Below are positions 10,666-56,800 of a stretch of DNA of 64,000 bases, one piece after another. Below the pieces are notes generated by a model. That model had not been told where the DNA came from and ran no database searches. It saw only the letters and a list, made by a program, of their open reading frames with translations. Within the stretch, counting starts at the first letter, position 1, and every line of letters begins with the position of its first letter. The DNA lies in NCBI GenBank assembly GCA_012295275.1, contig CM022666.1:13020001-13084000 (forward strand), given 5' to 3'. The position numbers and the translations under genes are program-made. Origin of the DNA: Chrysomallon squamiferum. Its lineage: Eukaryota > Animalia > Mollusca.

Positions 10666-10696
<31 letters not shown>

Positions 10697-20559: not shown

Positions 20560-22405
20560 GAAATATCTGACTCAGAATAGTTCACCTGAAATCATTAATA
20601 ATTTATTTTAATACAATTATACATACATACTTAAACACACATGCATGCACACACAAATACATTCATAATGAAGAGGCACACATACACACACTTAAACATA
20701 CATACAAGTATACAAACATACATACACATACACAAATGTACACTTGTTGTCTGCTATTGAAATAAGACCATGTAAGTTCTCTCCCTTTACTTGCAACAAA
20801 ATTTTGAACAGGGCTTAAAAATTCCAAGCACTTTTAAATCAAATATTTTAGTCTTTTGATATATGTCATCTATAATTTAATCAACACATCTATCTGTTTA
20901 CAATAACTTTATCAAATCAATTCTGTAATAAATAAACATTTTAAATATTTACTCTCATAACATATGCAACATCTTTCTCTGACGGAATGACAAAGTTCTT
21001 GGATGAGCATACTAATCAGAAATACAATAATCGATGTAGATCAAAACCCTCCTTAAAATAAAGCACATATAACTGGGACAAGTAAGGAATTAGAACAAGT
21101 AGAAAGAGCATACTGAGGAGAAATGATCCTACAGTGAACTGTTCCCCAAATGAGATATGCTTCCTGCTTGACAGTGCAGTGTCACTCAGGTATTTAGTTT
21201 ACAAATATTTGAATTTTCTTTCTGGTGAAAATTTGGAGTAATATTTACATGCTGTTTTTATTAGCTAGTAGTCTCAATTGGTTTTCTTATGTCAGAGAGA
21301 GAGAGAGAGAGAGAGAGAGGTTTGAAAATTGTAAATACTGAACTCCTCTAGTGAAAGTTAAAATAAATGAAATTAGGTAGCTACTGTAAACTGATCTATT
21401 GTAAATCATATATAAACGTTGACAGTCTGTACTTCAAATTACAAAATTTACCCTACTTTACCTTAATGAAACTGATTGTAAGGACATATTAAATTTGCAT
21501 CATCACAGGAATGATGCAATGTCGAAACTAAAATCCTAATTATCTAAAAGTTGTGACCTTCTTTAGTCAGTCTCACTCAAATTTAATAGAGCATGATACT
21601 AATGGTATGGAAATGAGTTATCCTTTATTTATCAGAATAAATTGGGATTGGGCATTTTGTAGTTCTAAGGAAAAGTAATACATGAAAATGTCACATTATT
21701 GCAAAAATATACAGGGTTGTTGTTGTTTTTATTATTTTTAGTTACACACACACATACACATTTTATGTTATATATATTTCTTTTCTTTTTTTTTTTTCAT
21801 CTTCTTATTATATCTTCTATATCACAGTTCACTTTCATTTTATATTTCTATAACTTTAATAATGTATATGACATTAAAATGTCCTCCTTTCTTGTACTAT
21901 AGTATACGTCATTGCCAAAAATTAGTTAAAAATGAATAAAATCCATAATAGCTCATTTAAGGGATTTAGTTAATGTTACTAGTGTTGAAAATTTGTATAC
22001 ACTTTTGTCTGATCATTTTCATTCATTTTGTTCCGTATCACGTTGTTGTATTACCGTAGACGGTAGTGCAAGGAGGGTAGTCGAGCATAATATCAGTTCA
22101 TAGCAAGCTGAAATTTTCCTCTCTCTCTCTCTTAAATGCTTCATTTAAGTTGTCGATATTTATCATGTAGTCATGAACGTTAAAACATCAATGAGACTTT
22201 GGAAAGTCTAACATAATTAAGGATATTTATTTAAAAAACAAAAAAAACAACAAAATGGAATCCTGATTCAGCACGATATTTTCAGCTAAATGTAAAACAC
22301 TATATTCGTTGCTTATACAAGGATAAATATGTCACGCTGAAGCTTCACTCTGATTTAAAGAATCAGTTAAAAATCAAGAATAAATTCACATCTTCTGGCA
22401 CTTAC

Positions 22406-26000: not shown

Positions 26001-29000
26001 AAAATTTGTTCAGATACTTGATATTGTTAAATGTGTGCTTGAAATATATTTTAAATTTCTTGTAAGAATTATATAAAATAAATAATTGTTAATTGTTTTC
26101 CCTTGTATTGTTAAAACTGAAACTAATTTTGTAATTTTTATTTCAAAGGGTCGTAGTCCCTTCTATCTTGAACCAGCTGTGATAATAGTGATAACTGATG
26201 GAGGGTACTTAACTACCAGCAATGGTGTTCATCCAGAGGTAAGTTTTACAAGAATTTTTATTATTTATTTATTATTCTAAATTAAATTATTTTAAGATAA
26301 GATATATGGTTAAACTTGCATTTTATTCATTTCTGTAGTGGTAGTTACTTGTTTTCACTTATTTCTTAATATAACTGTTACTTAATTAACAGATAGGCAA
26401 TTTTTTTAATTTTTAAATCGTCCAATAAACAACATGTCTGTCAAAACACAGAACTGCAGTCATTCAAAAGATGAAAGTCATAAAAATAATTTTAAAATAT
26501 TACATACTTTTGTTATTAGTAAATAGATAAATAGATAGCTTTAGTGGCAGAAAAATATTTTTAAAAATTTCTGTGCTCTCACCTGTGCAGTAATGTAGGA
26601 ACAGACATTAATGATTAAACATTGCATCATTGATTTTTCCTATCTTCTGATTTCTCTTGATAATTAACAGCATGTTAAAATCATTTGTTTAAATGGGAAT
26701 TTAATTACAAATTACTGTAAGGAATCTGTAACCAAAAGCTTTATAACAAAATAATGGCGTATCAGGTAGTGAAAGTTCTTATTATTGTTACAAACATCTG
26801 CTTTATTTTCTTAACTGTAAACTACTTCAGTCAGTGTGTTAGAGGTTTTCCAGTTTAAGTTAATTTTAGCTGTTCTGTGCATGTGTGAACGGAGTTGACT
26901 CTGTTTTCAGCTCAACCTGCCAATGAACAACGTTGTACCAGGCACTGAGTTGACAAAAGAACCATTCCGCTGGGATCAGCGAATTTTCAGCCTTGTTTTG
27001 AGATTACCAGGCACCGTCCCACCAGAAACACCATTCACATTTATCCCCAACGCTGAAACTCACCCCATTGATGCCATGTGTGAAGTTACAGGAGGTATTT
27101 AGTGTTCAACTCTTTCCTTTGTGCTGGAATTATTTAGGCTTACTTGTTTTGTTGTTGCTGCTGGGGTTTTTTACTGGAGAAGAAGAATTGTTTGTTCATT
27201 ATTAAACTGTTTTATTCATTCCCCTAAGGTATTAGGTATAGGTTTATCTTTAAAAAAAAAATTATAGTTATATTTATTTTTGTGTTTAAAGTATTATGCA
27301 GATTATCTGATTGGTTTTATGTTGTTAGGTATACCATTCATTAAAAAAAAAAAAAAAGGACTACAGAATAATAAATAAAAGTTGTGCATTTCTCCATGAT
27401 TAGGAAATAAATTAAACCATTTTATTTTAAGCTTTATTTTTATTTTTATTATTATTTCATTCTATTTACTTTTAAGAATTTTTTTAAATTTTAATTTAAA
27501 TTTATCCCTTGTTTCATTTAATAAAATATTTTTTGCAGTTACAGGAAATTCATAAATCTAATTCATTCTTTCAGGCAGGTCCTATGCTATATTTACACAG
27601 AAAATGTTGAATGCAGCACTCGAATCTCTAGTACAGAAAGTTCAAAGTGGTGTGGTGATAAACTTTGAAAAAATAGGAAGTGACCCACCTCCTTTGGCAG
27701 ATAACTTCAGTGCTGATTCTAATGGAAATTTAAAAGGTTTGTGATTTCTAAAATATAAACTAAATTATTTTTTTTAGCAGTCCATATAATATTTTATAAA
27801 ATCAACATTACAAGATTTGTCATTGGTTAAGAATATATCAAATATTTGAAAACTTAGTTATCAATCTTTATATAAATATTTTTAAAAAATCATCATTACA
27901 AGGTTTATGATTTCTGAAATATTTATCTAACTTTTAAAATTAGGTTATCAATCTTTATAAATATTTTATAAATATTTTACAAGATTTGTGATTTCTGGAA
28001 TAGATCTCTAATAATCTTTTTGGACCGACAGATATCACTTTATTATAAACATTTTATAGACTCCTAGCACAGTTCTGTATTAATAAATATTCCTGCACAT
28101 TAATTTTGCAATCGCATTCAATTCAATATTTTTTTTTTCTTAATTAAAACTGAATTCTTCTCATTCTTACAGAAAATCAGGACATCAACAAGCCAATTGT
28201 GAATGAGAAAGAACCATCCATCATGGAAGAGAAAAAGAATTTGCAGCAACAGCAACAACAGCAGACAAATTCACAAAACCTTGCCTGGCAGAACTGTCGA
28301 CGTCTGATCTACGTGCCTCGGTCAGCGCAGAAGGGCTACTCTGTTGGCCACTGGCCAATACCTGAAGGATACTGGCCTGATCCTAGTAGTCCAACTCTAG
28401 TAAGTGTTTTAAAATAAGCCTAGTAATATATGTATTGTTAAATAAACCTAGTATTGTAGATAAGTGAAAGATTTTAAATAAGCCTAGTAATGTAGATATG
28501 TGAAAGATTTTATTTTCAATGTAGGCATCATTTTTATATTCTACTTTCAAATACCAAAAACTGGTTTAAGACTGAAAAATTATCAGACTGCTTTTTATAC
28601 TTAATTGTTTTACTACATTTTATTTTTACCACTGTTTTGACTGAAATTTTACATAGTAACTGATTGGTGTGTATGTGCATGCATGTGAGACATGGAAACA
28701 GACAGAATTAAAAAAAAAAAATATATATATATATATTTCATTAATAACTAAAATGTTATTTAATAGATTTCAAAAGAATATATTTTTCAAATGCTTAACT
28801 ATGCATGACATAGCTAACAAAGAAATTAGAAATTCATTTAGTTTAAATCAAGCAAAATTATTGATAATAATCATATTTTGTTTGTAATGTATGTATGTAC
28901 ATCTATGAAGCACTGTTAGTTTGAATATTTAATTGGACTTAGGCATATTTTATGGCCAGGAAATGTTGATGATTGTCAAATAACTACAGTGATGATGTTT

Positions 29001-32000
29001 ATAAACCTAGCTCTCTGAATTAAGCAAGTGAAGACAACAAAATCTGAGTAGTTATGAATTCCTGACATTTTTCTTCCCCCTTGATTATAAATGCGTAGAT
29101 AAAAAATGCTGATTTATCTAGTTAACAAATGTGATTTTTTCCTTTCTTCTTTCCAGCCTCCACGTACTGCACACCCTGTTGTTAGGTTTTCATGTTCCCC
29201 CTGTGATCCAATTGTGATAGAGAATTTACCATTTGACAAATATGAACTGGAACCGTCACCTTTGACCCAGTACATTTTGGAACGACGCCAACCAAATTCT
29301 TGCTGGCAGGTAACCATTTTAACTTGAAGCGTTTCACAATTTTAAATTTTGATCAAATGCAGAATTTTCTTTGATACAGAGTCAAAAATGCTTTCAGGTG
29401 GAAAGGGTCAGAAACTCCGTGACCATGTTACTGGTGGTATTGAGGATTTTACTAGTACTTTCAGATATTAATCTTAAATTGCTGTATTCAACCAGTCTGT
29501 AAAAAGTATAAATTTTAAATTTTAATCTGTCTATAACAGAATGATCATAAAAATGTGCAGTGGAAGAAATAGGAAATGCTGATCATTGAACCCTTAATAT
29601 TTGATAACTGAGAAGGGAGATAAGTCTGTACATGAACCATAGTTAGATATTTAAAATGATAAAATGGTATAAACAGAACTGTATCTTTTAGAGCACCTGA
29701 GAATGACAGTTAAAACCATCCAAACAATTGAAAATATCTACTTTATTCGTAACTACTCAATTTCAGAATTCATGTTTGTGGTGTTTATTTATTATTCTCA
29801 ATTTTTTTTTTTTTTTAAATTAAATTTCTGTGTTTTAAAACACCAGATAATGAAAAGTAACTTAAGCATATACATTTTTATCCATTTGTACAACTTTAAT
29901 AATTTGGTCTTAACTACCTAAACTGAGATTTGTCATGGCCTTTTTTTTTTTATTATTCTTTTTTTTTTTTTTTTAATAAAATTCTGCTTTTTATTGATAA
30001 ATTTTAAATAAATAACATTTTTGTTTCAGTGTAGTCTTGGTTTTTACTTTCAGGTTTTTATTGGCAATAGTGCTAAATACAGTGACATATGCCATCCATT
30101 TGGCTATCTCAAAGCCAGCAGTGCTCTTTCATGTGTCAACCTGTTTGTGATGCCATACAACTTCCCAATCCTTCTACCATTACTAGGTGAGTTGAAGACT
30201 TTCTATTCAGTAAAACAACAAACGTTTAGAAATAAACTTTAACAAAATGAGACATAGTGGACAGTTAAAATACAAAATTTACATCTGAAGTGATCAAAGT
30301 ATGCATTAAGTAGTTCCTAGTTAGTCCTATGGATTCATAAACAACAAACGTTGACAAATATAGTCTGATTACAAGGTGATTCATGGGAATTTGCCCAGAA
30401 TGAAAAATAAGCTACTTACAAATTTTAGATATGTCAAAACGTTTTTTAAGTATCTGTGTATAAAACAAATTTAAAACAGTTACAGGTTTGTGTTGATGTC
30501 TTTATCATTAGCATCTTCTTGTAGCCATTCACAAATACAATAATTACTGGAAATATTCAAATGTTGTTAGCTTTTGTCACAATGCTACATTCTTGAATTG
30601 GATGGTATTAATAACATTATACAATCAGACAACAAAAAAACAACAATGGAATTTTGTTTCACAGGCAGAAATTAAATTTAAAAAGCACAAGTTACTCATT
30701 TATCATTCTCAGTGTTTCGGTTTTATCTTTTTTATCTTTTAATTCGTGTGACCAAAACTGAAATTTTTATATATTTTTTTTTTTTTAAATGTATCCCCCA
30801 CCCCTCTTTCCCTGCTTCTTTGACAATTGGTTCCATTTCTATATTCAGCATGAACCTCTGTCGCCATTCTGTGATCATGTGACCTCAAGTCGAATGACGC
30901 AGGAATCAAGGCGATGGACGCAGGGTCAGCTCACACGTGAGACATTTATTTTAGAAATGTCGTATGGGTTGCAGATTGTTTAGTGTTGCTATAGTAACCA
31001 TAATACACTGTGTCCACTTTTCTAAATCTTCGTTATAAATTTCGCAAATCATTTCTAAGTCATTTCAAGAATTTTTGTTATAAATATTATTTTAAAAGTT
31101 ACATACGAATAATGTTTCCATAGTAACTTTATGGAAAAATACTGGTTAATCATTATCTACATTATTCCAAAAAGATGTGCAGTAATTTTAATTTGTGTTC
31201 AAGTAATTTCTTATATAAATATGATCTGTCTTTGTTTTGTTTTTTTTGTTTTTTTTCTTCTATCTAAACTCTTGAGAACCTGTAGGGACAGCCATAGTGG
31301 TTATTATTTTTTATTTTCTTAGTATCTCACTTCATCTGTGACAGTATATTATGACAATCTCTATCTTATCTCTTTCAGTACTGTGCCTGAGTATTGTTTT
31401 ATTTTTATTGTATTTGAAATATTTGTCACTTGAAGAATCAGTTACAAAACATATCTTACTTAAAATATCTGAAATGAATGATTATATAATTGTAATAGGT
31501 TTTTTATTTATTAATGTTCAAATAATATATATTCAGGACTTGAAGTAATAGCTGTATGCAAAAATAATAGACATTTTTTTAAACACTGATATGTCAAATC
31601 TTTTTTAAGGTTGTTTTTTTATTACTTTAATGAAACATTGCAGATAAGAATCAGCCAGATATTTTACAAATCAGCTTTTATTACTGTCAGTGAGCTAGAT
31701 AAAATCTAATACACGTTATTTAACTCTGGGATTATTATTATTAATTTTTTATTATTTTTTTAATGATTTGCTTGCAGGTAATCCAAATGCAATATTAATA
31801 TTCCTTTAGTTTTTATTATTATTATTTTTTTTTTTTTTTTCCAAAGAAATGGAATCACTGGATATTTTCATTTCTATAACAATATATGATTATTTAAAAA
31901 AAAATTATATTATATTATGTGTTTGTTGGATTTTTTATATTCATAATTTTTTTTTTTTTTAATCTTTTTTTTATTTTTTTTTTTTTTAATGTTACACAAA

Positions 32001-33065
32001 TAAGTATTCAGTCAGTCATTCTGAGTTTATTTCTTAAATGGTTTTAGAAATAATGTTACCATAGTAATGAAATAATAATACTGATTCCACTTAATGATTA
32101 TTTAATCTGAATTTGCAGTATTATTTCTACATAATTCCAGAAATATACACTACAGTTTTGATCTGTTTGAATATTTTACTATATAAATATGATCCCTTCT
32201 TTTTCTATTTCTTCTGCAATAATGTAGACATTATACTGGTTGATGTTAAAATTATTTTTATTTAAAATTGGAAATGGTTTATAACTTAAGATGCATACAA
32301 AAATACATCAATATCAAAAGGGTCCTTTTTTCTTATTACTAACCTTATTTATTTGTTTATTTTTTTTTATTTTTATTTTTTATTTTTATTTTTTTGTAAA
32401 AATGTTTTTTTACATTTATTTATTTTTGCTAAGTTCTAATGGCAAACATTTCTTTATTATCTCAGGCAAATACAAAAACACAAAAAGCTATTAAAAACAT
32501 ATAGGTTTTTAATATGGATATGTGCGTTTGTATCAATAAATACAAAAGCAGTACATTAAGTTTTAACACTTCTTGATTCAGAAATTAAAACATTTTCTTA
32601 AATTTTGTAGCAACAGTCTGACTGGAATTTTATTTTACGAATAATTAGGTTTCTTTTTATTTTATTTTGTTTTTTCAGAGGAACTGTTTAAAGTTCACAA
32701 GTTAAAACCAACTCTGAAGTGGAGACAGCAGTTTGAAAATTATCTCAAAACAATGCCAGGTTATTATGCTGGGGTATGTGTCACTTGATTCATCTACCAG
32801 AAACTTCATTTATATATATTACATATACAGAGAGAGAGAGAGAGTGAGTGAGTGAGTGATACACAGTAGTTTACATGAATTACAGACAAAATAATAACTT
32901 TGATTAATTAGTAGTGGAGCAGTGGTTGTAATGGGAAATAAGCCCACAGAGTATTACTCAATATCTCATTTAACTACAGTGATGAGTTTTATAAACCTAG
33001 CTCTCTGAGAAAAACAGACTGAAGACAAAATAAAACTGAGTAGTTAAAGTGGAAATGCATATATA

Positions 33066-33104
<39 letters not shown>

Positions 33105-36100
33105 TCATTATTATTCTTTAATACTGTCAGCTACATAGTTAGCTGCCCTGAATAATGTAAACCATTGATTTATTTATAAAAAAATATATTATTTTTTATT
33201 TATTTTTATTTTAATTTTAATTTTCATCCTTTTTTTTTTAAATTTTGTTGTTTAATGTAAGTTTTAATGTTTAATTTATTATATACAGCTGTTCAGGTTA
33301 GCACTGGCCATTGCTGTATTTTCAGTTTTTACTTTTGTTATTATTATTTTTACTATTATTATTTTTATTTTCAGCCATTGAGAAGAGCGCTGGCAAGAAT
33401 GGGTGCATCAAACCTAGTCCCTGACAACATGGACAACTGCCTCAGCTACAGTGTCATCACCTACCTGAAAAAACTGAAGAACCAGGTACGTCTATTGTCA
33501 CCTGTGATAGGCAGTGTGTAAAGGTGTTTAAAAACCCACCAGAATTAACTTTCAGAAAAGTTGACAGCTTCATCATTAACCTGCTATTCTGTTTTCACAC
33601 TATATTCTGAGGCATTTTACGAAATAGTGTTTATTCACTAATATTAGGTGATTAAGCCCTTTTTACTAATATTAGCTGATTAAGCCCTTTTAAGCATTAT
33701 ACAGTATAATACATTTTTTTATTACTTTTTAATTACTATTTAACAGTGTATAAGTAAATTTTAAACAAAAAATAAACGTCAAATGCAGATGTACATAGAT
33801 AAGTTATTTAAAAAAAGAAAAAGAAAAAGAAAAAAGTTCAGTGTTAACCACAATGACGACAATTATATACCCAGCTCGCTTAAGCCAAAGGCACTGAAGA
33901 GAAAAAAATCTGAGTGGTTATTTTTAGTAACTGCTAGCACATGAAATAATAAATGTACATTTAATTAAATGCAGCCAGTGAGTCAGCAGAAAACTAATAA
34001 ATTGCAAACAAGAATTAAAATCTTGCCAGATAATTTTGTATGTAGTAGTATCAATCAAATTAAAAAAAAAATATTTATAAAAGTGATTGCTGTTTGCTGT
34101 AGATTTATGTCAGAATTGAAAAGTTTGAATTTACAGAGCAGAGCCTCCATTAAAAGGGTAGTCTGAATCATAATTGTTTATTTAAACTATTTTATTATTT
34201 GCAATAAGTGTGTGTCTGTGCGTGTGTGTTGCTTGAAATGTATTAAACCTCTCACTGACAGTAGGAATTGTGATTTAGTGTGAAAAATCTCAAGAACAGT
34301 AGATCACAGAAGGCAAATTGTGACCTTTTCTTATTTAATAGATGTACTGTAACTGATACAGGTAATTTCAGAATGCAAGACTATTACACTGATATAAAGT
34401 TAGAGATTTGCACCACAAGTACTCCACAAATTGTTTTTAATCCATTATACTGCTCTGCAGTGTCTTTAAAATTTGAATGCAGAAATGGAAAGTAAAATTG
34501 CTAATTTCCATAATAAATTTGTTTAGTTTTAAAATATACAGTATTGACCAAAGTGATGACATTCATACACCCAGCTCGCTTGGAGCCTAATGGCAGTGAA
34601 GAGAGAAAAATCTGACTGGTCAATTACAACCACTGAAAATGTAAAGTGGTTCTAACATTAGTTACTAAATGTCTTTCAGTAAGGTTTTGAAGTATGTGGG
34701 ACACATTTATCAGTTTTTAGTGGTCTTTTTGGTGATTGATTTATTATGGTTTTTTACACATAAATATTTTACATTTTGCTGTTGTCAGACTTGTTTATTT
34801 TTCCTATGTCCAAGTTATTATCGCCCAAAATTTATTTTTAGTTCTTTATAATGATGTCCAGTCAAATCACTCTTCAGATTTTTAACTCATTACCTAAACT
34901 ATTAGATGGGCTAGTTAACTTCAGTTTAGAAAAATACTTAGTATTAGTTATCAGTAAAACTTCAGTTATCAGTAAAACTTCAGTTATCAGTAGATTGTGT
35001 CAGTAACAGGATCTGATTCTAGTACTGTTGATCTGTTGTTCTTATGTGTTTTTTTTGATCATTATGATGACATTTATACATCCAGCTCGCTTGGAGCTTA
35101 ATGCAGTGAAGAGAAAAAAATCTGAATGATCTGTTGAAATCAAAGTTATTTCAACTGCAGAGATTAAATTTCCTTATTTTTAGTAACTGTTAGCACATGA
35201 AATAATAAATGTACATTTAATTAAATGCAGCCAGTGAGTCAGCAGAAAACTAATAAATTGCAAACAAGAATTAAAATCTTGCCAGATAGTTTTGTATGCA
35301 GCAGTATCAATCAAATTAAAAATATATTATAAGAGTGATTATGTTTGCTGTAGATTTGTCAGAATTGAAAAGTTTGAATTTACAGGGCAGAGCCTTATTA
35401 AAAGGGAAGTCTGAATCATAATTGTTTATTTACTTAAACTATTTTGTTAATTGCAATAATTCTGTGTGTGTGTGTTACTTGATCAGAGTTGGAATTGTGA
35501 TCTAGTGTGAAAAATTTGAACTAAAGTTAAAGTAGATGACAGAAGGCAAAATATGAGCTTTTCAGATTTAATAGATGTACTGTAACTGATAAAGTGGTAG
35601 ATACAGGGAAATCAAAATGATACTGAAGATAATCTCAGAATTCAAGACAATTACACTGATATAACGTTAGAGATTTGCACCACAAAACTCCACAGATTGT
35701 TTTTAATCCATTATACTGCTCTGCAGTGTCCTTAAAATTTGTATGCAGAAATGGAAGGTAAAATTGCTAATTTCCATAATAAATTTGTTTAGTTTTAAAA
35801 TATCCAGTATTGACCAAAGTGATGACATTCATACACCCAGCTCACTTGGAGCCTAATGGCAGTGAAGAGAGAAAAATCTGACTGGTCAATTACAACCACT
35901 GAAAATGTAAAATGGTTCTAACATTAGTTACTAAATGTCTTTCAGTAAGGTTTTGAAGTATGTGGGACACATTTATCAGTTTTTAGTGGTCTTTTTGGTG
36001 ATTGATTTATTATTTTTCAGACTCTTGTTTATTTTTCCTATGTCCAAGTTATTATCTCCCAAAATTTATTTTTAGTTCTTTATAATGATGTCCAGTCAAA

Positions 36101-39100
36101 TCACTCTTCAGATTTTTAACTCATTACCTAAAATATTAGATGGGCTAGTTAACTTCAGTTTAGAAAATTATTTAGTATTAGTTATCAGTAAAACTTCAGT
36201 TATCAGTAGATTGTGTCAGTAACAGGATCTGATTCTAGTACTGTTGATCTGTTGTTCTTGTGGGGTTTTTTTGATCATTATGATGACATTTATACACCCA
36301 GCTCGCTTGGAGCTTAATGCAGTGAAGAGAAAAAAATCTGAATGATCTGTTGAAATCAAAGTTATTTCAACTGCAGAGATTAAATTTCCTTATTTTTAGT
36401 AACTGCTAGCACATGAAATAATAAATGTACATTTAATTAAATGCAGCCAGTGAGTCAGCAGAAAACTAATAAATTGCAAACAAGAATTAAAATCTTGCCA
36501 GATAGTTTTGTATGTAGCAGTATCAATCAAATTAAAAATATATTATAAGAGTGATTATGTTTGCTGTAGATTTGTCAGAATTGAAAAGTTTGAATTTACA
36601 GGGCAGAGCCTTATTAAAAGGGAAGTCTGAATCATAATTGTTTATTTACTTAAACTGTTTTGTTAATTGCAATAATTCTGTGTGTGTGTGTTACTTGATC
36701 AGAGTTGGAATTGTGATCTAGTGTGAAAAATTTGAACTAAAGTTAAAGTAAATGACAGAAGGCAAAATATGAGCGTTTCAGATTTAATAGATGTACTGTA
36801 ACTGATAAAGTGGTAGATACAGGGAAATCAAAATGATACTGAAGATAATTTCAGAATGCAAGACTATTACACTGATATAAATTTAGAGATTTGCACCACA
36901 AGTACTCCACAAATTGTTTTTAATCCATTATACTGCTCTGCAGTGTCCTTAAAATTTGTATGCAGAAATGGAAGGTAAAATTGCTAATTTCCATAATAAA
37001 TTTTTTTAGTTTTAAAATATCCAGTATTGACCAAAGTGATGACATTCATACACCCAGCTCACTTGGAGCCTAATGGCAGTGAAGAGAGAAAAATCTGACT
37101 GGTCAATTACAACCACTGAAAATGTAAAATGGTTCTAACATTAGTTACTAAATGTCTTTCAGTAAGGTTTTGAAGTATGTGGGACATATTTATCAGTTTT
37201 TAGTGGTCTTTTTGGTGATTGATTTATTATTTTTCAGACTCTTGTTTATTTTTCCTATGTCCAAGTTATTATCTCCCAAAATTTATTTTTAGTTCTTTAT
37301 AATGATGTCCAGTCAAATCACTCTTCAGATTTTTAACTCATTACCTAAAATATTAGATGGGCTAGTTAACTTCAGTTTAGAAAATTATTTAGTATTAGTT
37401 ATCAGTAAAACTTCAGTTATCAGTAGATTGTGTCAGTAACAGGATCTGATTCTAGTACTGTTGATCTGTTGTTCTTGTGGGTTTTTTTTGATCATTATGA
37501 TGACATTTATACACCCAGCTCGCTTGGAGCTTAATGCAGTGAAGAGAAAAAAATCTGAATGATCTGTTGAAATAAAAGTTATTTCAACTGCAGATTAAAT
37601 TTCCTTATTTGCTGTTTCAGTTATGGCTGCCATAACCTTTTACATGATCGGTTTCTGTAGTAACTTTCTGCTGCTGTTAAAACACGTTTTAATCATTTAT
37701 TTATTTATCTATTTGTTTCATTTTTATTTTTTATTATTATAATTTGTTGTTTTTTAATTAACTATTGTTGATACTTAGATAGTTAGATACCACTTAGGAA
37801 ATAAATATGTATACTTCATGACTTATGTAGGTGTATCATTCTGTGGATCCCAATATAGGTCAAAATGTGTATTAGTGCATACTCCATTTATTTAATAATA
37901 TATCTTTTATTTACTTTACACTCACTGAGTATTGTTATGACAAATGCATTGTTTAATTTAAAAACTAAGCCATGAAATCACTACGTGACTTTAACCAGTG
38001 TTCATGTTAAACTTGCTTTTATTTAGAAGTTGGTACATGAGTGAGAAAATGTATATTTAGATCCTGTTAGTTTTATATTCATCTTTTATCATCTGTAATT
38101 AAGTATTAAGATTACCAATATTTAATTGTAAAATTATTACTGGATCATTTTCTAGTGAAGAATGGTAAAATAATTATTATATAATGAATTTATTTTAATG
38201 ACCATGGTGATGACATTCATACACCCAGCTCGCTTGGAGCCTAAAGGCAGTGAAGAGAGAAAAATCTGAATGGTCATCCATTCCCCACATAAAAATGTAT
38301 AAATTCTGTAAATATTAATGCTGCACAAAGTAATTTTACACATAATAACTGAAATAAGAATTGTGAAAAAAAGTCTGAACTTAAATGTTTGGAAAAAAAG
38401 TCATCACTGAAAAGATTTTAACTATTTGAAAGAACCAGTTTTAATGGTCCTTAACATGTGACCTGCATTTTGAATAGAAGGTTGCTTGATTTTTGTAATT
38501 TTGTGAGTACGGTTGCAAACATGCTTGGTTTTTACATTTATATTTATGGAAAGTTTGAAGCAAATACAATTAACCTCTTTAATTTGGTGTTTACAAAAGA
38601 AACCCTCCAACTGCACTTTTATTATTATTTATTTATATAGCTTTTTCCGTCAAATTTGATATTCATGGTCACATTTAATTTGGTTACAATTCAAGAATCT
38701 ATTATTTGCTTGTGTCACTAATTTTTATTTAGAAGACCTTGGAACTGACATTTCTGTGCTAGTTCTTATCCAGAGCCAGTTATGGATATATTAAATTATT
38801 ATACCTTATTTTCTGTCTAACCAGCAAAACATTGTGTTAGGTACAACATTAAGAATTTAATAGTAGCCTAAACAAAATGTTTTGTGCATGCTGATGATCA
38901 GGATAGGTTTGGTGGTGATGTTGAATTTAACATTAATATTTCCACTTACAAACCTTTAGACCTTTGGCTTGCATTATGTATGTCAAAATTTTAATTATTA
39001 TTGACCATGGTGATGACATTCATACACCCAGCTCGCTTGGAGCCTAATGGCAGTGAAGAGAGAAAAATCTGAATGGTTGATTAATTAAATTAGAATGTAT

Positions 39101-42100
39101 ATTAATTAGGTGATGACTGGTTATTTCTGGTTGCACATTGTGTTAATGAGTGCGTATGTGCTTAATGACTCATTTCATAGCTTCATTTTTTTTTTTTTTT
39201 TTTTTTTTTTTAGTAGAGATTTGATTTTTGATTTTTTCTTCAAGTTTCTTGCAGTGATTTGTAGTTTTCCAGTATGGTTTTGAAGTACTTGGGACGTATT
39301 TATCAGTTCTTTTTGGTGACTGATTTATTAACATTGTTTTACATACTCATTTACATATTTTTTGTTTCAGCAGATTTGTTTCAAATGCCAGCAATTTATA
39401 CTTTTGTCTAGAACATCCCATAAATTTTTGTTTCCTTATAAAGACCACAGTGATGACATTTATACACCCAGCTCGCTTGGAGCCTAAAGGCAGTGAAGAG
39501 AAAAAAATCTGAGTGGCCAAGATTGTACTGCATTTCCACAACCATTGTCTTAAAACTTATTTTTGCTAAATTTTACCAGTTCTTTTGTAACATTTTAATT
39601 TTAGTTTTTAACAACCCACTTAAAACACTTAGGTTGAGAAATGAATGAAAATTGTTTTTTGTTTTTCCAGGCTAAAATAGAAATGGACAGACTGATAGCA
39701 TCAGTTGGTCAGATACCTCCACCTAATGAAGGAATAAAAGTTGATTCCAGGTATGAATATATTTGTGATGGTGGGAAGTGGGTACAAATAGGACAAGAGA
39801 TATTTAGTTAAAAGATTTATGGTGATCTATTACTTAATTTTGAAAATATTTAATTATATGTTTGCTTGTATTTCAAATATCTGTTTTGCTGTCTTCAGGA
39901 TTTAAGAATCGTCTTTGTGAAACTTTTTATTCTTAATAAAGTATTGCCTTCTACACTGAATTGTATACATATTATTACACAATTGTTATAATATCTTCCT
40001 TAGAATCTGATTAATGTTTTCACAACAAAAAAAGTATTTTTAATGTTACTAATTTTCAAACTTTTAAAAAATGTTTAAATAATATTATTCACTTACAGGA
40101 ATACATTACATGGTTATTTCCTCTTTTTTTTAACAGAAGCACTACATCATTTTTAGAGAGAAAAGACTTCAATCAGCTGATGAAAAACATGGGTAGCAAT
40201 ATGTCTTGTCTGAAACAAGAACTCAAAGAATTCAACTCGTTTACGATAGCTGTCCCAGACAAAGAAATAAAACCACAGTACTACAGGTAACATACCACTC
40301 TGTTAAATATAGAAGTCAGTTTTCAAGATTTTCTCTAATCATTTAGCTATTGCAGTATTTGTTCATAAATGTATTTGTTTTGTTATGGTTTGTTAGTATT
40401 AATTTCATTTTTTAAAGAAGTAAAATTGTAAATATATTTATTTGTTCTTGTTTTTGAAAATCAGGATTTCTATTTTACTTTACTTTACTTGACTTTACAT
40501 TTGTAATGAAGTATAAAGTTACTCATCCAAATATTTCATAGTAAAATTCTTTCTGGATCATTTTCTAGTGAAGAATGGTAAAATAATTATTATATAATTA
40601 ATTTATTTTAATAACCAAAGTGATGACAGTGGATGTTTTGTGCATGTTGATGATCATATTAGGTTTGGTGGTGATGTTGAATTTAAGATCTACTTACCAA
40701 CCTTTAGATCTTTGGCTTAAATTATGTATATCAAAATTTTAATTATTGTTGACCATGGTGATGACATTCATACACCCAGCTCGCTTGGAGCCTGGAAAAA
40801 TGGCAGTGAAGAGAGAAAAATCTGAATGGTCATCTAGTACCAGTTTCTTTTTTCTTTTATTTTTTGTTCCCCACATAAAGAAAGTATACATTTTATAAAC
40901 ATTAATGCTTCCCAAATAAATTTTACACATAATATTGTGATAAAAGTCTGAACTTGGAAAGACTTTAACACTATTTGAAGGAACTGGTTTTAAAGCACAT
41001 TAGTATGTGACCTGCATTTTGAATAGAAAATTGCTGTATTTTCATAATTTTATGGATGTAGTTGCAAGCATCCTTAGTTTTACATTGAAAGCCTACCTCA
41101 CCTCATCTCACCTTACCTCACCTCACCTCATCTCCACTGACCGTACCGTACCTTACCTTACTTCATCTTACTTTACTTTACATTACATTACATTACATTA
41201 CCTTACCCACCTCACCTCATCTCACCTGACCTTACCTTACCTTACCGTACCATACCTTACTTCATCTTACTTTCCTTACATTTCATTACCTTACCTTACT
41301 TTACTTTACTTTACATTTCATTACCTTACTTTACCTTACTTTACCTTACCTGTACCTTTACCTTTTGCGTATACAGAAACCCCTACGATATTCCTCGGAC
41401 AAGCCTGCTAGATCAGATAACAAGAATGAGAATGAATTTTCTCCAGAGTTCTTACTCCAACACTAAAGTTGTTGATGAAGGTAAGTTTATTTTTTGTTTG
41501 TATTTTTTATTCAGGCCATTATACTATCAGTTATTAAAGTAACGATAAGATCATAAATTATTTCAAGCCGTTTACTATGACAATTTTTATAAAGTAATCT
41601 AAACACTAGCATTCAATACAGACATTGTTAAACTGTAAAACAAAAATAGAAGAATAAAAGATGATGAGGATGATGATGGTATTTATAATTCAATGAATGA
41701 AATAATGGAATTATAAAAATTGAATCCACAAGTTGTTAACAAATAGGTTTTGCAGATATATATTTTCTTGTGTTAACAGTGAAACCACGGTGATGAGAAA
41801 TATACGCAATGAGCTAATACCTCTGAAGAAAACTAAATATCTGAGTGGCAACTGAAACTTATGAAACATTTAAAAATAATTTATCTATACTTCAAAGTGA
41901 AAAATACAGAATAGTTACAATATGCAAAATGGCTTTAATTCAGCCAACAGCATACAATTTTAAATGTTCATTATCCTGGTGGTTATGTTCAAGTCCATGA
42001 GGAGGATCAATCCTGTATAGGGCCACCAGAGGGCTTTTTCCCATTCCAAACAGCTTGTTAAAGTTTTTTTGTTGTTCTTTCCCATCTGTGGGAAGTTATT

Positions 42101-45100
42101 TTAGGATACTCTATACAGATTATTTTGGTTTATCATTATACAAGAAACAATACTGGCATCTAGTAATGGTTAATATTAAAATGTGTTTAAGGAACTGTTA
42201 AATATTTATTATCAGCTGTTGTTGCTTTTTCATATCCCAGTATTTAAAAAAACCACCACAACAGTTAGTAACTTGATGTTAGTTTTATTAAACCTGCATT
42301 CATTTACTATTTAAATATAGATATGTTTACAAATTTCTACACTTGATTCTCAGTATTTTTAAAATACACATATTTCTATATTTTTTTAAATATATCTTGA
42401 TATTCTTATCCACCATGATGAGAAATATACGCACTGAGCCACGTGCTTTGAAAATGACAAAAATCCTGAGTGGCACAAATTAATTTTTTGAAATAATTAA
42501 AAATGATTATTTATATAGATAAATAAATAAATAAATGTTTTTCCGTAGCTTGCATTTGAGCACTTAATTTCATTTCATATGTGACTGAAATATATGACAT
42601 GCATACATATTTTGAAAGATGAACAAAATGGCACATACATGGTTGAATGAATATGTTTACAAGTATTTAAATTTTGTTTTTGAATTTCTCTTACAAAATG
42701 AACAACATTTTTGTGTTCCAACCCAATATAGTTTTTCTAAATAATAAATGCTTATCATATATTATATTTTCCAAATAACAATAAGTTCTGACATGTACCC
42801 TAAATTGGTTTCTTTAATTTCAAATTATTTTACCAGTAATACTTTCAGAACAAAATGTTTTCTTTTTCAGATCAGCTACACAGTATACCTGTACAGCAGA
42901 TGGGTAACTACCAGGAATATTTGAAAAAACAGCCCTCCCCTCTCAGAGAGCTGGAAAACGCCCCAGTCAGACTGCACATGTTTGGAAATCCTTTTAAAGT
43001 TAACAAATCTGTAAGATATCTTTCAAAAACACCCATTTGTATTATTATTACTCTTGTTGTTATCGTTCATCACACAGATTAAATTTTAAACTTTAATGAT
43101 GTTTTGTTATTAGTCTGTCATTTTTGGATTTTGTTTAGTTTTGTCTGGTTGATGACAGTTTGTGAATGTATAGCATAGTACAGTCAAGAATTTTCCACAT
43201 TTATAGTGATGTTTGTCTAGTCTGTTTCCTAGAGTGTTTATCATATAATTTACATTTAAGTTTTCTTTTACCAGTGTAGAAGGGATATTAGCTTTCAAGA
43301 TAGAATTATTTATTTATTTAATTTATTTAATTTATTTACAGCAGCAGAACTTCATGACAGATGAGGTGGATGATGCTATGTTTGGAACACAAAACAAAAA
43401 AAGACCTGCAGAAAGTCCACCACCTTCTCCTGGGCCTCGGAAGAGAAAGCCTGGTACGTGTTAATCTGTGGCAAATAGAGATTGGGTTCTATTTGGCTTT
43501 ATTTTATTTCAATTATTTTTTCTTCCCCCTTCTAAAACACATTTTCATGTTTACTGAAGTGTTTGCTTAATTAGTACTTATAATAGGTATTGTAATTTAA
43601 AATCAAAATCAAAAAAAGACATTTAAAAACAAAAATTGTAAGAGCATTCAGTTAATAGATCAAATAAAATTTTAAAAAAAATATTGGTAATTATTTGTTT
43701 TCAGATCATAACATCAGACTTCTATTACAAATAAGGTCACATTGAAAATATATAATTTTATACAATTATTACCTCGACAGTGAATTCAGTGAGCAAAAAA
43801 ATACTAATAAAAAAATGAACAATTCTTGACTTCAGGTCCATTACCACGTGATATTCCAGTAAGGCGCCCCTCCACACCTCTACCCACACCCCCACCATCC
43901 CCCCTGCCAGAGGAAACCCCCATGAAGACAGAGGAGGAGAATGAAGAGCCTGTCCAGAATGTTTGAAGGTAATTACAATTTTATCTCAGCTGATTCACTC
44001 TGTTAATCAATCTCTTTTTATTACACTAAGGCTAGTACTGTGTATGAAGCCCAGTTATTCCCATGTTTGAATGGATTTCCACAATTTGTTAATTATACAG
44101 TTTGCCTCATAAACTTTATATATTACAAAGACCACAGTGATGACATTCATACACCCAGCTCGTTTGGAGCCTAATGGCAGTGAAGAGAGAAAAATCTGAG
44201 TGGCCAAGATTGTACTGTTTGAAAATTTCCCATATTTAAGCAGCATCTTAATGAAATATTTTAGTATTTATCTGCCTTGTATCTGTGTTTGTTCATGCAC
44301 AGACATATTCATTGTTTGACATACAGTTAGATTTATTCATACACATCTCTTTGATGTTTTATAAAATAGTGAATTTCATTTATGGAATACTTATTCAGTT
44401 GAAACTGGATATATTTCTAGAATATTCAAACATCCATATACGTCCCATATTCCAGTATATTTTAATAGGGGGTTTTTTAGGTTTTTTTTTAACAGTGATG
44501 GTTAAATAGTTAGATAGTTTGTTTTCTTAATTATTAAAATTTAATGTGTTTATTAATAAATCACGATTTAAATGCTTTGTCTGTGTGTACATGTGTGACA
44601 AGAGTGGCGATAGATCAAAATAAGTGTTCCTTTAATATAGTGGATCAGTATTTCTTCTACTGCTGATGATTTATAATGAATTTATCAAGTCTGTGTATTT
44701 GTATAAAGACCACAGTGATGACATTTATACACCCAGCTCGCTTGGAGCCTAATGGCAGTGAAGAGAGAAAAATCTGAGTGGCCAAGATTGTACTCATTAA
44801 TAAATCTTAGTTGCCAAAAATAGATTAAAAACAAACATATTGTACTTGCTCAAATGTATTTGAATTAAATATGCAACAGTTTAGTTTAGAAAAGTTTTGT
44901 AGTGGATAAATCCTGGGTATATTCATAGTTATTCAAAATTTTCATTTTTATTCTTTTGAGACATCTTTAAAAAAGGTCAGATAAATTTTTATTACTTACA
45001 GAGAAATAATTTAATTTTACAGACTGATGGTATTTTTAAACTAAATCATTGAGGATTATTTTCAAGGTGTTCAGAATTTTACACATTTCAAACATTATTT

Positions 45101-49300: not shown

Positions 49301-50289
49301 TTTTTATCCTGGTTTATTTCATACAGGGACAAATGATCATGTAGATTCATTCTACTGAAACAAACAAAATGAGTGAGTGAAAATCGCATGTACATGAAAC
49401 TTTCAAGACATAATTTTGCGAATTTTTATAGGCCACAAGTTTTTCTATAGAATCACATGTACACTAACTCTTCATTTTGCTGCAGAAACCAAGTTGAGGA
49501 CAGTAACTCCTTAGTTTAATGGCATAAACAAGGAAAGAAATAGCCTGGGTGGGGTTTTTAAATGTCTTCATTTATCACTCAGGTGTATTAGTATTGAGTG
49601 TCTCTTGAACTGTTCATTATGCTGTTAGTTCATCACTAATGTCTATCTTTATGTCTGTTTAATCTTGTCTAAATTTTGAAAATAAAATAGTATCAAGTAG
49701 TTTTTGGGGGTAATGTTCAGACATTTGAACACAGGAATAATTTTTTTTTTAAATTGCTCTTGGTCTGTTCTCAAATGTTAAAATTGTTTTTTTTTTCATT
49801 TATTATTTATAAATTTTGAAATTGGTATTTTCCTGGGGGTTCATGAATCTAACCTTGCCTAGAGCACTAGCCTGTCCATTCTGTAACAGTGGCAGTCTGG
49901 TATCTGTAATATCTTGATACCACGATGAGCTGATACCATGATGACCCTTCATTTGGTTATTTTCATGATGAAATTGTTTGGTATTTAACATTAGGCATGT
50001 TTTAAATCATTAGTCACTAAAATGACAGATCATTATGACAATTCAAAAAAATTTAACTTCAGAATAATTCAGTAGTTTTATCTGTAAGAAATGGGTTTTG
50101 TGTTTAATATTTGTTTTCAATTTTATAAATTTTAAAGTCATCAAAAGTATAGTCCTATTTTCTCAAAGCTTTTTTAAAAAAAAACCAAACAAACAAAAAA
50201 ATGTTAAAATTGAGAATTTTTAAAAATCTGTTATTTCTGAATCATTGTATGAAGTTCAAATAAAAATCAAAAATGATTAAACAAATATT

Positions 50290-53200
50290 TTATTTACCAC
50301 TTTTCTTTAGCAGCTTTTTTTTTTTTTTTTTATCAGGATTTTTAATTTGATGTCCTATTCTTGTTTTCTTGTATTTAAAGTTAGAAAATCCACTCAAATT
50401 TTCCAAAACGTCACCACTAGCAGTCAAATGTCTTTTCAGTTTCTTTGTCTCTGGGGCTACATCAGTCTCCTGTAGACTCTCTCTCTGTAGTAATATCTGT
50501 TTGTAAGTTAAATGCTCCGAGTCTGAATCATCATCTGAATAATCTCTGATGGAGATAAATTCTCCCAAATCACTTAATTTCTTTTTCTCACTTTTGAACA
50601 CATACAAATAAGAATAATCGTCTTTCGGAACAAATTTCACAGCTGCTGTGGACAGATTCTCAGTTTCGTCTTTAGATGAACTTTCCATCTGTTCCTCACC
50701 ATCTTTGACTCCAGAATCGGAGTTTTCTCTTTCTGACTGTTTTTTATTTTCCTCTGTCAACTCCTGTGTGGAATCGGTGACTTGGTCAGCAGTGTTCGTC
50801 GGAGACAACACTACAACATCTTCAGTGTCATCATCCCAAGGCATGACAATTGAAACTGCTTTGTTTTGACAAAATGAAACCAGTTCATTGAATTCAGACT
50901 CTTCCTTAGAACAACATTTCTGGGGAAAAAATATAAATTATATATATGAAAATAAACAAACAGACAAACAAATAATTAAATAAAATAAACTAAAACAAAT
51001 ACATAAATAAATTTAAAAAAATAATATCTTCTTTAAATCAAAATCTAATAATTTTTATTTTTTATTTTTTGGTGAAGTCAATAAATGAAAGAAGAATGAA
51101 CAAATAAATATTACAGTACAAGAGTATATTGACTTCCACTTAAAATACACTCATATCTGAATTTATCAAAAAATAATGTATGTAGTTTTATGCCACATAA
51201 AATATAAATGAAATGATATAAGTTGTTTGTATATTTGTCTTTACCCTAACAACAAATGGTAGAATTTTATTTTATTTTTAATAAGATAAATAGCTGGACT
51301 GAACTTTTTTACTGAATGAGAAATAATGACAATTTTAACCAGTCTCAACTCACTGACAAATATTTATAAGTGCAGAAAACAAAATTTTCTCCTTTTAACT
51401 GATAAACTGAATTATAAATATTAAAATCCTGACAAATTTATATTTTACCAATATTCATCTAAGACAAAATTAAATATATATATTAGTATTTCATTTCTGT
51501 GTATGCATTTGTGCATACTTATTAACTTGTAAAAACATCTACTCCTAAACCTTGCTGTTGCCTACACATTCCCCAGAAAACAACATTTTTACCTTGAATC
51601 CAACTCCAATAAGAGACTTGAAGCCGAAGTAAGGAGCAATTTTCTCACTGAACCGTGGAAGGCAGAGGGCGGGGCAGAGTCTGGAGGCAGCGAGGGGGAT
51701 GAGATGTTTTGTGATGAGCGGAGGCTCAGCTGACTGACACACGATGAACAGACTCAGCTCATCTTTCTCCAGTCCACGCGTGATCGCATTAACTCCGATA
51801 GCAAGCTGTGACCTGCAGTCAAACAACAACCACAGTTCACTCTGTGTTTTACTATATACATATATGTTACAAGATATAAATAAACTTGTCAAATTGCATG
51901 CCTTTCACAAATTTTCTTTATCTTCCTGGGTCTCTGTGTGTATAAATGTACATATACTATTACAGTGGTCTCGCCAGCTTTTGTGAAAGGAATGGAGGGA
52001 ATCAGAGCAACTGGTGCAAGTTAAACGAAATCAAAGTGTCTATTGACAACAAGTTTTGTCTGGTTGTCTGTGAATTATATTCTTTATTTATACAAAATAT
52101 ATAGTTTTGTAACCTTCTGTACATATATATATATATTATATATACATGTGTGTGTGTCTGTGAGATTGTTTTTACTGCTCTGAAAGAAAAAGAACACCAC
52201 GCAGCATGATAATGAACATTTATATGAATGTTGAGTTGGCAATGCATTGTTGATAATAATTATTTTTATATTGTGTGGATCAAGCGCGTATCTGTTAAAG
52301 TTATTTATGTATCTATTTTTTTTTTTACATAATTATTATACATTTAAAAAATGTGTAGCAATCATTGAAATTCATGTGCATTAATTTAGCCATGCAGTAC
52401 CTGCTACAGCAGCTTTGATTACACAGGCATCGTGAGTAGCAGCAAATTTCAGAGGAATCTGATTGCGTCCCATCAAAATGCAGGAGAGGGTAATTTGTAA
52501 ACATGACAATCGCAGCTTCGCACTACATTTATTTTGTTTAGGGAGAAGACACATGAACTGCTCACCCTGAAAGTGCAAAACAATGGCTGCCAGTCTAAAT
52601 AAACGGGTGGCAGATATTGCTGCTGTTGCTGCTGTTGCTGATGAATGGTGGGTGAACTTGTAAGTGGTAAGTGATGGCAGGCCTGCCATCTCTTACAGTA
52701 TGTAGCGAGACCTCTGAAATTACATGTATAATCTGAAATTCAGATAAAGATATCTGTCTTGCTATTAATCAATATCATCATTTTATTGATACCATTCGTA
52801 ACAAGGAAAAAGAAAGTCTTTTGTGTTGAGTTTCTGTGGACTGTAAGATCTGTTCTGCTCAGTGTGTTATGTCTGTTCAAGATAGATGCTAAAACTGCTT
52901 TTTCAAAGGCCACAGTATATTATTCCCTCCAGGTATTTTACTAGATTACGTGTCCATCAATGATTACATAGCATCAGCTTTTATCTTAAATTATACAAAA
53001 ACAAAAATAATGTTTTTCACTTAATTCAAATTTTAAAAATAAATATACATATATATTCATTACCTAAGACATTTTCTTTTCTTCTCATCTTCAGTTTCTT
53101 CAGTGATATGTCCATTTTTCAACTGTTCTTTTCTTTTCTGTTTTTCTTTCCAAGTTATTTTTGGACTAGCTAATGGCAATGTCTGCAATAAACTAAAAAC

Positions 53201-53497
53201 ATAATGTATTGCTTCATATGTTTTTACTGACAAATTACTTATTATTATTATTATTATTATTATTTTTTTATTGATATTTGTTTTGACTACTGTTGTTAAT
53301 TAATGCCAAAATATATAATTTCAATATGGGGTGGGTGTCTCTGTCTCACGTTCAAGTTATCATAAACAGCATGGGATGTTGAAAACAGTTCGTGTAAACA
53401 TTATCATTATGAAATACCTGCTTATTTTTTCTATCACTTCCTTAGACACCACTTTATCTACAACAGGCCTGAAAAACGAAAATATTTTCCAGTTAAT

Positions 53498-53580
<83 letters not shown>

Positions 53581-53798
53581 TAGAAAAGTAAACAAATGAA
53601 TTATTAAATATTTTACAGCGAATTAATTGAAAAGTTGTTGTTTTTTCAAGTTGTAAAGAGTATGTAAAGAGTAATCTGATACCATGTGTACGAGTATGGA
53701 TTGATGAGATAAGCCTTAGCTTGGGCACTGGTTTTTGTTTTTGACCTTTCGCGTAATGTTTTTTGAACATCTCTGTCGGTTAACGTGGGCACAGCCAT
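50290..53798 (-). CDS. RPP38: Ribonuclease P/MRP protein subunit p38 (L7Ae family), 5 exons
   Basis: Exons 53798-53683, 53468-53418, 53192-53064, 51812-51593, 50919-50290. Peptides YLINPYSYTW, LLQTL and QLAIGVNAITRGLEKDELSLFIVCQSAEPPLITKHLIPLAASRLCPALCLPRFSEKIAP..GFKSLIGVGFKK match RPP38. The Lys-rich C-terminus KIKNPDKKKK-like tail suggests a nucleolar localisation signal. Confidence 0.9.
53504..53578. repeat. (GA)n microsatellite in RPP38 intron 1
   Basis: Perfect dinucleotide run. Confidence 0.95.
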
Positions 53799-53930
53799 TT
53801 TTGCGGAAACATAAAAGTCTCTCTAAATAGAGCACATATTTGTCTTATATTTCTAATAATGGTCTTGGTTAACGAGGCTAAAAAAAGTTACCGCCAAGTT
53901 GTCTTGCTTTCGTTTTGTATCTAATTAAGT
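53799..53930. promoter_or_regulatory. Very compact bidirectional promoter and 5'UTRs of RPP38 and RNASEH2B
   Basis: Only 132 bp lie between the divergent predicted start codons. A GCGGAAA motif is at about 53803. Confidence 0.7.

Positions 53931-56764: not shown

Positions 56765-56800
<36 letters not shown>

Follow-up and report, generated by a model that had tools for sequence, protein, structure and literature searches.

Ten small nucleolar RNA units of the box C/D type in a single INTS6 intron of the mollusc Chrysomallon squamiferum

Intron 11 of the INTS6 gene of the mollusc Chrysomallon squamiferum contains ten small nucleolar RNA (snoRNA) units of the box C/D type, all in sense orientation to their host. 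We confirmed this layout in a window of 64,000 nucleotides (nt; positions 13,020,001 to 13,084,000 of contig CM022666.1, GenBank assembly GCA_012295275.1), the whole stretch of DNA that was analysed and to whose coordinates all positions below refer. C/D snoRNAs have been described as lying one per intron, near the 3' splice site, in vertebrates and flies, and the INTS6 intron breaks with this layout. The arrangement itself is well supported and its predicted targets are ordinary and conserved; the mechanism by which the copies would leave the intron is one that we infer.

The units were recovered by scanning both strands of the window for RTGA[T/C]GA, followed 45-130 nt further on by CTGA and closed by a terminal stem of at least 4 base pairs (bp). 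This gave 17 matches on the plus strand, every one of them inside an INTS6 intron, and four scattered matches on the minus strand. Ten of the plus-strand matches lie in intron 11 (C boxes at 33853, 34553, 35064, 35819, 36280, 37036, 37497, 38207, 39010 and 39450), where the same scan found no C/D unit on the antisense strand; dinucleotide shuffles of this intron (n=300) produced a mean of 0.11 units and a maximum of 2. As the original prediction had stated, introns 14 (C boxes 41790, 42415) and 17 (44137, 44715) hold two units each, and single units are found in introns 7, 10 and 13 (28989, 32979 and 40758). With two or more sense snoRNAs between consecutive INTS6 exons, the arrangement has the layout of an intronic cluster.

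All ten units of intron 11 possess box C (RUGAUGA, with ATGACGA in copy 1), box D (CUGA) and a closing terminal stem. The C' box TGAAGA is invariant in all 15 aligned units, and the D' box UGGA, followed by a stem of 2-3 bp, is present in nine of the ten copies and degenerate in copy 1. Folding z-scores of six copies ranged from -3.3 to -0.1. The ten bodies represent seven distinct sequences: copies 2-10 are mutually 89-100% identical, and copy 1, with its variant C and D' boxes, is 76-83% identical to the others. Six of the ten copies stem from three units of about 1.22 kb. The intron and its contents are as follows, all on the plus strand.

33375..33485, plus strand: INTS6 coding exon 11, flanking the cluster intron on its 5' side (gene model, homologue alignment)
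33486..39670, plus strand: INTS6 intron 11, host of the ten C/D units (GT..AG, open frame, homologue alignment)
33846..33920, plus strand: copy 1, the diverged member, with C box ATGACGA, degenerate D', a 7-bp terminal stem and an 11-bp guide match
33918..37610, plus strand: head-to-tail triplication of a unit of about 1.22 kb with one A and one B copy, units starting near 33918, 35175 and 36391
34546..34622, plus strand: copy 2, type A, repeat unit 1
35057..35132, plus strand: copy 3, type B, unit 1, with one guide change (9 bp when one G-U pair is allowed)
35812..35888, plus strand: copy 4, type A, unit 2, with a guide change that turns a G-U into an A-U pair
36273..36348, plus strand: copy 5, type B, unit 2
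37029..37105, plus strand: copy 6, type A, unit 3
37490..37565, plus strand: copy 7, type B, unit 3
38200..38276, plus strand: copy 8, with flanks related to those of the intron 13 copy
39003..39079, plus strand: copy 9, which shares 84% identity with the intron 13 copy in the upstream flank
39443..39519, plus strand: copy 10, 158 nt short of the 3' splice site, with about 95 nt common to both intron 17 copies
39671..39750, plus strand: INTS6 coding exon 12, in frame with exon 11 (gene model, homologue alignment)

The host gene comprises 19 exons on the plus strand, from 23076 to about 46322 of the window. These exons match the Pfam families VWA_2, Beta-barrel_INTS6 and INT_SG_DDX_CT_C, and the best named match of exon 5 is INTS6 of Gigantopelta aegis (97% identity). 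Intron 11 spans 6185 nt and has GT..AG ends, precisely where the original prediction had placed them, and the spliced reading frame stays open across it. The protein junction between exons 11 and 12 is gap-free in all 16 INTS6 homologues tested (of 69 found); therefore, no coding exon is missing from the intron, and ten C/D units indeed share one true intron of a coding gene, as originally predicted. Across the exon 11 donor (33469-33596) there is also a weak Rfam SNORD22 match (20.6 bits, cut-off 50, E 0.26), which is probably due to chance.

Thirteen of the 17 units form one family, with ten members in intron 11, one in intron 13 and two in intron 17. The units outside intron 11 are listed here.

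28982..29054, plus strand: paralogue alone in intron 7, with D' two nt earlier and an snR69-like guide (yeast Cm2948 site)
32972..33046, plus strand: second snR69-like paralogue, alone in intron 10
40751..40832, plus strand: main-family unit, alone in intron 13, its internal loop 5 nt longer
41785..41849, plus strand: unrelated C/D unit, the first of the intron 14 pair, with a 9-bp match to 18S ribosomal RNA (rRNA; SNORD65/snR77-type site, weak)
42410..42474, plus strand: second unit of the intron 14 pair, which has 74% identity with the first and an identical 12-nt guide
44130..44206, plus strand: main-family unit, first of two in intron 17
44708..44784, plus strand: main-family unit, second of two in intron 17

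SNORD29/snR71 had been named for an Rfam check of the family, and a likeness to it is supported by the guide register and the predicted target site, but not by the Rfam score. No match in the window attains an Rfam gathering threshold, E-value scans gave only generic C/D matches, and SNORD29 (RF00070) scores 14.6 and 18.5 bits against a gathering cut-off of 48, so that we file the 13 units as SNORD29/snR71-like rather than as members of RF00070. When D' is read as UGGA, the D' guide is in register with the Rfam SNORD29 consensus, and a short stem follows D'. We searched for targets in the 18S, 5.8S and large-subunit (LSU) rRNA of another eukaryote (locus L001, Rfam-typed, 5.3 kb). The guide 5' of D' pairs over 11 bp with a single LSU site in nine of the ten copies, and over 9 bp in copy 3 when one G-U pair is allowed. 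Shuffled guides reached the respective match in 0 of 100 cases for copies 1 and 10, in 2 of 100 for copy 4 and in 11 of 100 for copy 3. The guides on the D-box side yielded no rRNA target, their matches of 5-7 bp being equalled by 57-100% of shuffles. For the intron 14 guides, the best match of 9 bp is found with 6-10% of 60 shuffles, which makes SNORD65-like a weak label.

With this reading of D' as UGGA, the base at D'+5 is an A two positions before the C that is chosen by the paralogues of introns 7 and 10. These paralogues, 65-72% identical to the ten intron 11 copies, have their D' two nt earlier and carry a perfect 12-bp guide matching the snR69 consensus. The spacing of two fits the yeast pair Am2946 and Cm2948: in Table S4 of PMC11014333, yeast Am2946 (snR71) corresponds to human Am4523 (SNORD29) and Drosophila Am3478, Cm2948 belongs to snR69, and a single Drosophila gene set is assigned to both the A and the C site. 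The family is thus predicted to guide LSU 2'-O-methylation at the equivalent of yeast 25S A2946 and human 28S A4523. Here, we assume that the yeast numbering, transferred by way of the Rfam registers, is correct. There are caveats to this assignment: the L001 rRNA is that of another eukaryote and was fetched with a pattern that contains the target site, and UGGA is a degenerate D' box, so that reading D' as CUUG moves the target by two bases, to the snR69-site C. Besides the main family, INTS6 thus holds sister guides (28982-29054 and 32972-33046) directed at neighbouring sites of the rRNA.

From the elements that are observed directly, namely ten units, their single intron, a tandem junction, body-over-spacer conservation, compensated stems and guide complementarity, we developed the following proposal. 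Local DNA duplication likely produced ten copies of a SNORD29/snR71-like guide gene in intron 11, and these copies are likely made from INTS6 pre-mRNA under the host promoter. Their assembly into ribonucleoproteins (snoRNPs) would be independent of proximity to the 3' splice site. Separate RNAs of about 70 nt would likely then arise through spacer cuts and subsequent trimming by exonucleases, and their D' guide would direct 2'-O-methylation of the predicted A, and amplification would raise the dose of one guide for the peptidyl-transferase centre. As neither a sequence nor a hairpin signal was found in the spacers, the internal cut would probably be a nick made irrespective of structure, either in the lariat or in sno-lncRNA-like intermediates (long non-coding RNAs, lncRNAs, capped by snoRNAs). 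Taken as a whole (host transcription, splice-independent loading and spacer cuts), we consider this proposal evenly poised between right and wrong, and place it ahead of release by exonucleases only.

The position of the solo snoRNAs bears on the loading step. The three of them (n=3) end 109, 335 and 551 nt before the 3' splice site, compared with about 70 nt for C/D snoRNAs of fly and vertebrates (PMC1821038, PMC5054931), which suggests that assembly is not tied to the branch point. Moreover, the pairs in introns 14 and 17 show that the multi-snoRNA intron 11 is not a one-off in INTS6; the two units of intron 14, an old pair with 74% identity, have nonetheless kept their boxes, stem and identical guide. 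Several results weigh against the proposed cutting step. Neither RNase III hairpins nor long inverted repeats were found, in weak tests, in the spacers, whose folding z-scores ranged from -1.2 to +0.4 and whose longest helices measure 10-14 bp with G-U pairs included; 12 flank lineages have no 6-8-mers in common that could constitute a cleavage motif. The RNA evidence is thin, consisting of 13 contigs over 2.8 of 6.2 kb, at a depth of about 1-13 and from one study, with uncontrolled DNA carry-over, seven loose ends and 144 pieces outside those listed; gaps in its coverage carry no meaning. No mature small RNA was seen in the contigs, which are assembled from long-RNA libraries and cannot show RNA ends. 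Directly 3' of each type B copy, and of no other copy, there is a hairpin of 8 perfectly paired bp and a 7-nt loop (35133-35155, 36349-36371 and 37566-37588), which could either have arisen by chance or be a local processing signal.

Release might alternatively proceed with exonucleases only. If C/D proteins loaded only part of the copies on each debranched intron, a single loaded copy would be trimmed to a snoRNA, while two or more would leave a stalled sno-lncRNA; no endonuclease would be needed, and all copies would be under selection. Two snoRNAs within one human intron do give sno-lncRNAs (PMC5054931, PMC11028025), copies distant from the branch point may load poorly, and one RNA contig runs unspliced and unbroken for 569 nt from copy 6 through copy 7. 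The lack of a detectable cleavage signal in the spacers is equally in line with this scenario. However, unless loading is rare, having ten copies would lower the proportion of molecules with a single loaded copy; amplification would then pay little, and the repeated gains in three introns would argue that extra copies add product. We therefore regard release by exonucleases only as a possibility to be reckoned with, albeit an improbable one.

A further scenario takes up the hidden non-coding exons or recursive splicing of the original prediction; used in a minor isoform sensitive to nonsense-mediated decay (NMD), they would restore one snoRNA per intron. Eight of the nine spacers did not score higher than 15-77% of the intron windows free of snoRNAs, and all 15 AG|GT points in intron 11 have negative acceptor scores; both are weak tests, as the splice models were built from 17 sites each, miss 3 of the 17 true acceptors on leave-one-out and were compared with a null from few introns. 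The exception is a 225-nt candidate exon in spacer 1 (34137-34361; 17.5 bits), which lies above all 150 null draws; a 372-nt candidate in spacers 3 and 5, at 16.9 bits, falls among the scores of true exons (15.5-29.2). In human, snoRNA hosts commonly have NMD-sensitive variants (PMC4233243). Against this, RNA contigs run unspliced over the candidate splice sites 36602, 36974, 38641 and 38774, and none of the three listed RNA joints is GT..AG, two of them being paralogue differences and one the tandem junction, with the proviso that small splice models could miss weak sites. Hidden exons and recursive splicing hence appear unlikely and find no support here, which leaves cleavage-based release or long products of the sno-lncRNA type.

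A different question is whether the internal copies function at all. Between repeat units 1 and 2, differing sites amount to 2 of 152 in the snoRNA bodies and 57 of 1020 in the spacers (Fisher p=0.026); the corresponding counts for units 2 and 3 are 0 of 152 and 16 of 1062 (p=0.25). In older pairs, bodies are 91-97% identical, while flanks have dropped to 47-53% in three of five pairs (chance level about 0.5) and to 63-84% in the other two. Within the terminal stem, four of seven pairs show changes on both sides, with a covariation score that none of 500 shuffles reached (14 distinct rows); three of these four pairs vary among the intron 11 copies themselves, and the type B lineage has two compensated changes. 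Because of this conservation of bodies over spacers and of the compensatory stem changes, the internal copies look selected, judging from their sequences. There are three caveats to this view. The covariation is inflated, as the sequences are related and the structure was read from the same sequences; gene conversion could keep the bodies alike; and release by exonucleases only, with one randomly loaded copy per lariat, would account equally well for selection on all copies.

The extreme form of the gene conversion argument would be that function is confined to the solo copies and to the one copy closest to the 3' splice site, the other nine being by-products of duplication that gene conversion has homogenised. 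The variant boxes of copy 1, the guide change of copy 3, the youth of units 2 and 3 (1.5% apart) and depth ratios hinting at unit numbers that differ between individuals are all compatible with such by-products. They would, however, hardly be expected to have compensated stem changes specific to internal lineages, such as the two of type B, nor a deficit of changes in bodies versus spacers, nor conservation that does not reach beyond the ends of the stem; we consider this explanation quite improbable. It is very improbable that each copy has its own intronic RNA polymerase II or III promoter, since, in tests that are weak, the 12 flank lineages share no 6-8-mer upstream in excess of the null, only three of them have a T4 run in the 40 nt downstream, copies 10, 44137 and 44715 have only about 10 nt upstream in common, and all 17 units are sense to the host. 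Independent intronic snoRNA genes of this kind exist in nematodes.

The array bears the traces of its origin. Units 2 and 3 of the triplication differ by 16 substitutions (1.5%) and 4 gap columns, and units 1 and 2 by 5.6% and 129 gap columns. Outside the triplication, copies 8 and 9 and the copy in intron 13 have flanks in common, and a stretch of about 95 nt is common to copy 10 and the two copies of intron 17; by eye, neither a target-site duplication nor a poly(A) tail was found at copies 10, 44137 and 44715. These patterns fit DNA-level duplication together with short-tract copying; a cis duplication route has been proposed for C/D genes (PMC11028025). A spacer segment of about 80 nt in the repeat units (34671-34758) is 76% identical to one before copy 10 (39264-39343), either as a trace of an older duplication or as a conserved element.

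To compare the array with public data, we used two DNA runs from two studies (X1, X2) and two RNA runs from one study (X6, X7), over positions 36395-39170; runs X9-X11 (share 0.19 or 0.00) were left aside. The junction between repeat units is present in all four runs, and in X1 it occurs as two contigs, the number expected of three units. The tandem duplication is thus not an assembly artefact, a point on which the original prediction had made itself dependent. We regard eight copies as secure and ten as likely, as units 2 and 3 could be alleles. Taking unique sequence as the reference, the repeat unit has a depth ratio of about 2.5 in X1 and about 1.9 in X2; these values are not copy numbers, and their difference is a weak hint that the number of units varies between individuals. 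One of the DNA runs may stem from the source sample of the assembly.

INTS6 exon 17 (43836-43968) has an in-frame stop just 5' of a strong donor unless a 1-base indel is assumed. The G. aegis protein continues past this position into exon 18, and the stop is probably an assembly error of 1 nt. That the whole array is an artefact of uncollapsed haplotypes is the least probable of all explanations: although this indel, the X2 depth of about 1.9 and the allele-like distance between units 2 and 3 might be cited for it, the junction occurs in four of four runs, the two X1 junction contigs fit three units, unit 1 differs from unit 2 by 5.6% and 129 gap columns, the flanks of copies 1, 8, 9 and 10 are unique, and at least eight copies would be left at worst.

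That the host encodes a subunit of Integrator had been taken as a hint at the releasing nuclease. We find no support for this link: INTS6 is not the nuclease subunit, which is INTS11, and no sequence feature ties Integrator to the spacers. By title or abstract, none of the papers retrieved deals with Integrator as a releasing nuclease, and INTS6 does not occur among the listed rows of a supplementary table of snoRNA hosts. Ten C/D copies that look selected, made up of seven distinguishable sequences and lodged in one constitutive intron, offer a ready-made test of position-dependent maturation. Within one host gene, moreover, a guide family splits into two predicted target specificities through a 2-nt shift of D'. 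The boldest reading would be that a gastropod lineage abandoned the splicing-coupled one-per-intron rule for C/D genes, that a dedicated endonucleolytic step frees many C/D snoRNPs per intron, and that the dose of a peptidyl-transferase-centre guide is tuned by a tandem copy number still varying between individuals; this we put forward only as a doubtful, tentative suggestion.

Some further features of the locus deserve mention. The 3' end of intron 13 consists, up to the acceptor, of 54 copies of a TACCT pentamer (41094-41364). Head to head with INTS6 lies a single-exon gene for a leucine-rich-repeat, membrane-type protein of 490 amino acids (19099-20571, minus strand), 52% identical to a G. 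aegis protein. The neighbouring regions 49500-58900 and 6826-12023 include a minus-strand gene of the L7Ae family (Pfam), which we presume to be RPP38-like, and two further genes that we take, from their translations, to be RNASEH2B-like and BIVM-like. Human INTS6 and RNASEH2B also lie near each other.

How does this cluster relate to known systems? SNORD29 (U29) and yeast snR71 (RF00070, clan CL00051) have the D' guide register and predicted site of the INTS6 family, which differs in its Rfam score (14.6-18.5 bits, cut-off 48), in its UGGA D' box and in its 13 copies within a coding gene, whereas human and zebrafish SNORD29 are listed alone in an intron of a non-coding host. The departure from one snoRNA per intron, a central claim of the original prediction, is real for ten C/D units, but was overstated as a novelty, as multi-snoRNA introns of animals are already annotated: rows of the PMC11028025 supplement list up to 17 H/ACA snoRNAs in one Drosophila host and C/D triplets in RpL28 and top-2. 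Intronic snoRNA clusters are, indeed, a named category (PMC11028025, PMC12205218). In two further papers we came across nothing on multi-C/D intron layout (PMC13736004, PMC5932544).

A close likeness is to the Drosophila clusters in Arpc2, RpS5a and dom, where many tandem isoforms of rRNA guides share introns of an animal coding gene, as in INTS6. These are, however, of the H/ACA type, and for the 17 Arpc2 rows classed 'intronic_cluster' the PMC11028025 supplement does not state a single shared intron; fly C/D genes are said to stay one per intron (PMC3089462, PMC1821038). Two or three C/D genes within one intron of a coding gene are found, as annotated, in C. elegans top-2 (K12D12.6-8) and in Drosophila RpL28 (Or-CD11a-c) and RpL13A (Me28S-U2134a,b), and invertebrate C/D clusters have at most three members among the rows listed in the PMC11028025 supplement (annotation only), compared to ten in INTS6. 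Among the mammalian C/D rows listed (30 of 108, same supplement), SNORD114/116 arrays with non-coding hosts, along with pairs, predominate.

Human sno-lncRNAs (SNORD116 region, LNC-SNO49AB, SLERT) likewise derive from introns with more than one snoRNA. In these, two snoRNAs, mostly orphan guides, cap an lncRNA from a non-coding host, whereas INTS6 has ten rRNA guides in a constitutive coding intron. Plant intronic clusters (rice) and the yeast polycistronic clusters processed by Rnt1/Pac1 also place several C/D genes on a precursor that needs internal cuts, and the nucleases for co-hosted snoRNAs are described as largely unknown outside budding yeast (PMC12508059). By comparison, the INTS6 spacers are long (360-730 nt), separate members of one family, and no hairpin of the RNase III type was found in them. 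By title or abstract, our searches returned no mollusc and no ten-copy C/D intron; this search did not cover the primary fly work, and the precedent may be larger. The intron 11 cluster is neither a new class of RNA nor directed at a new target; new here are its scale for C/D guides, its occurrence in a mollusc, and the presence of three multi-snoRNA introns in one gene.

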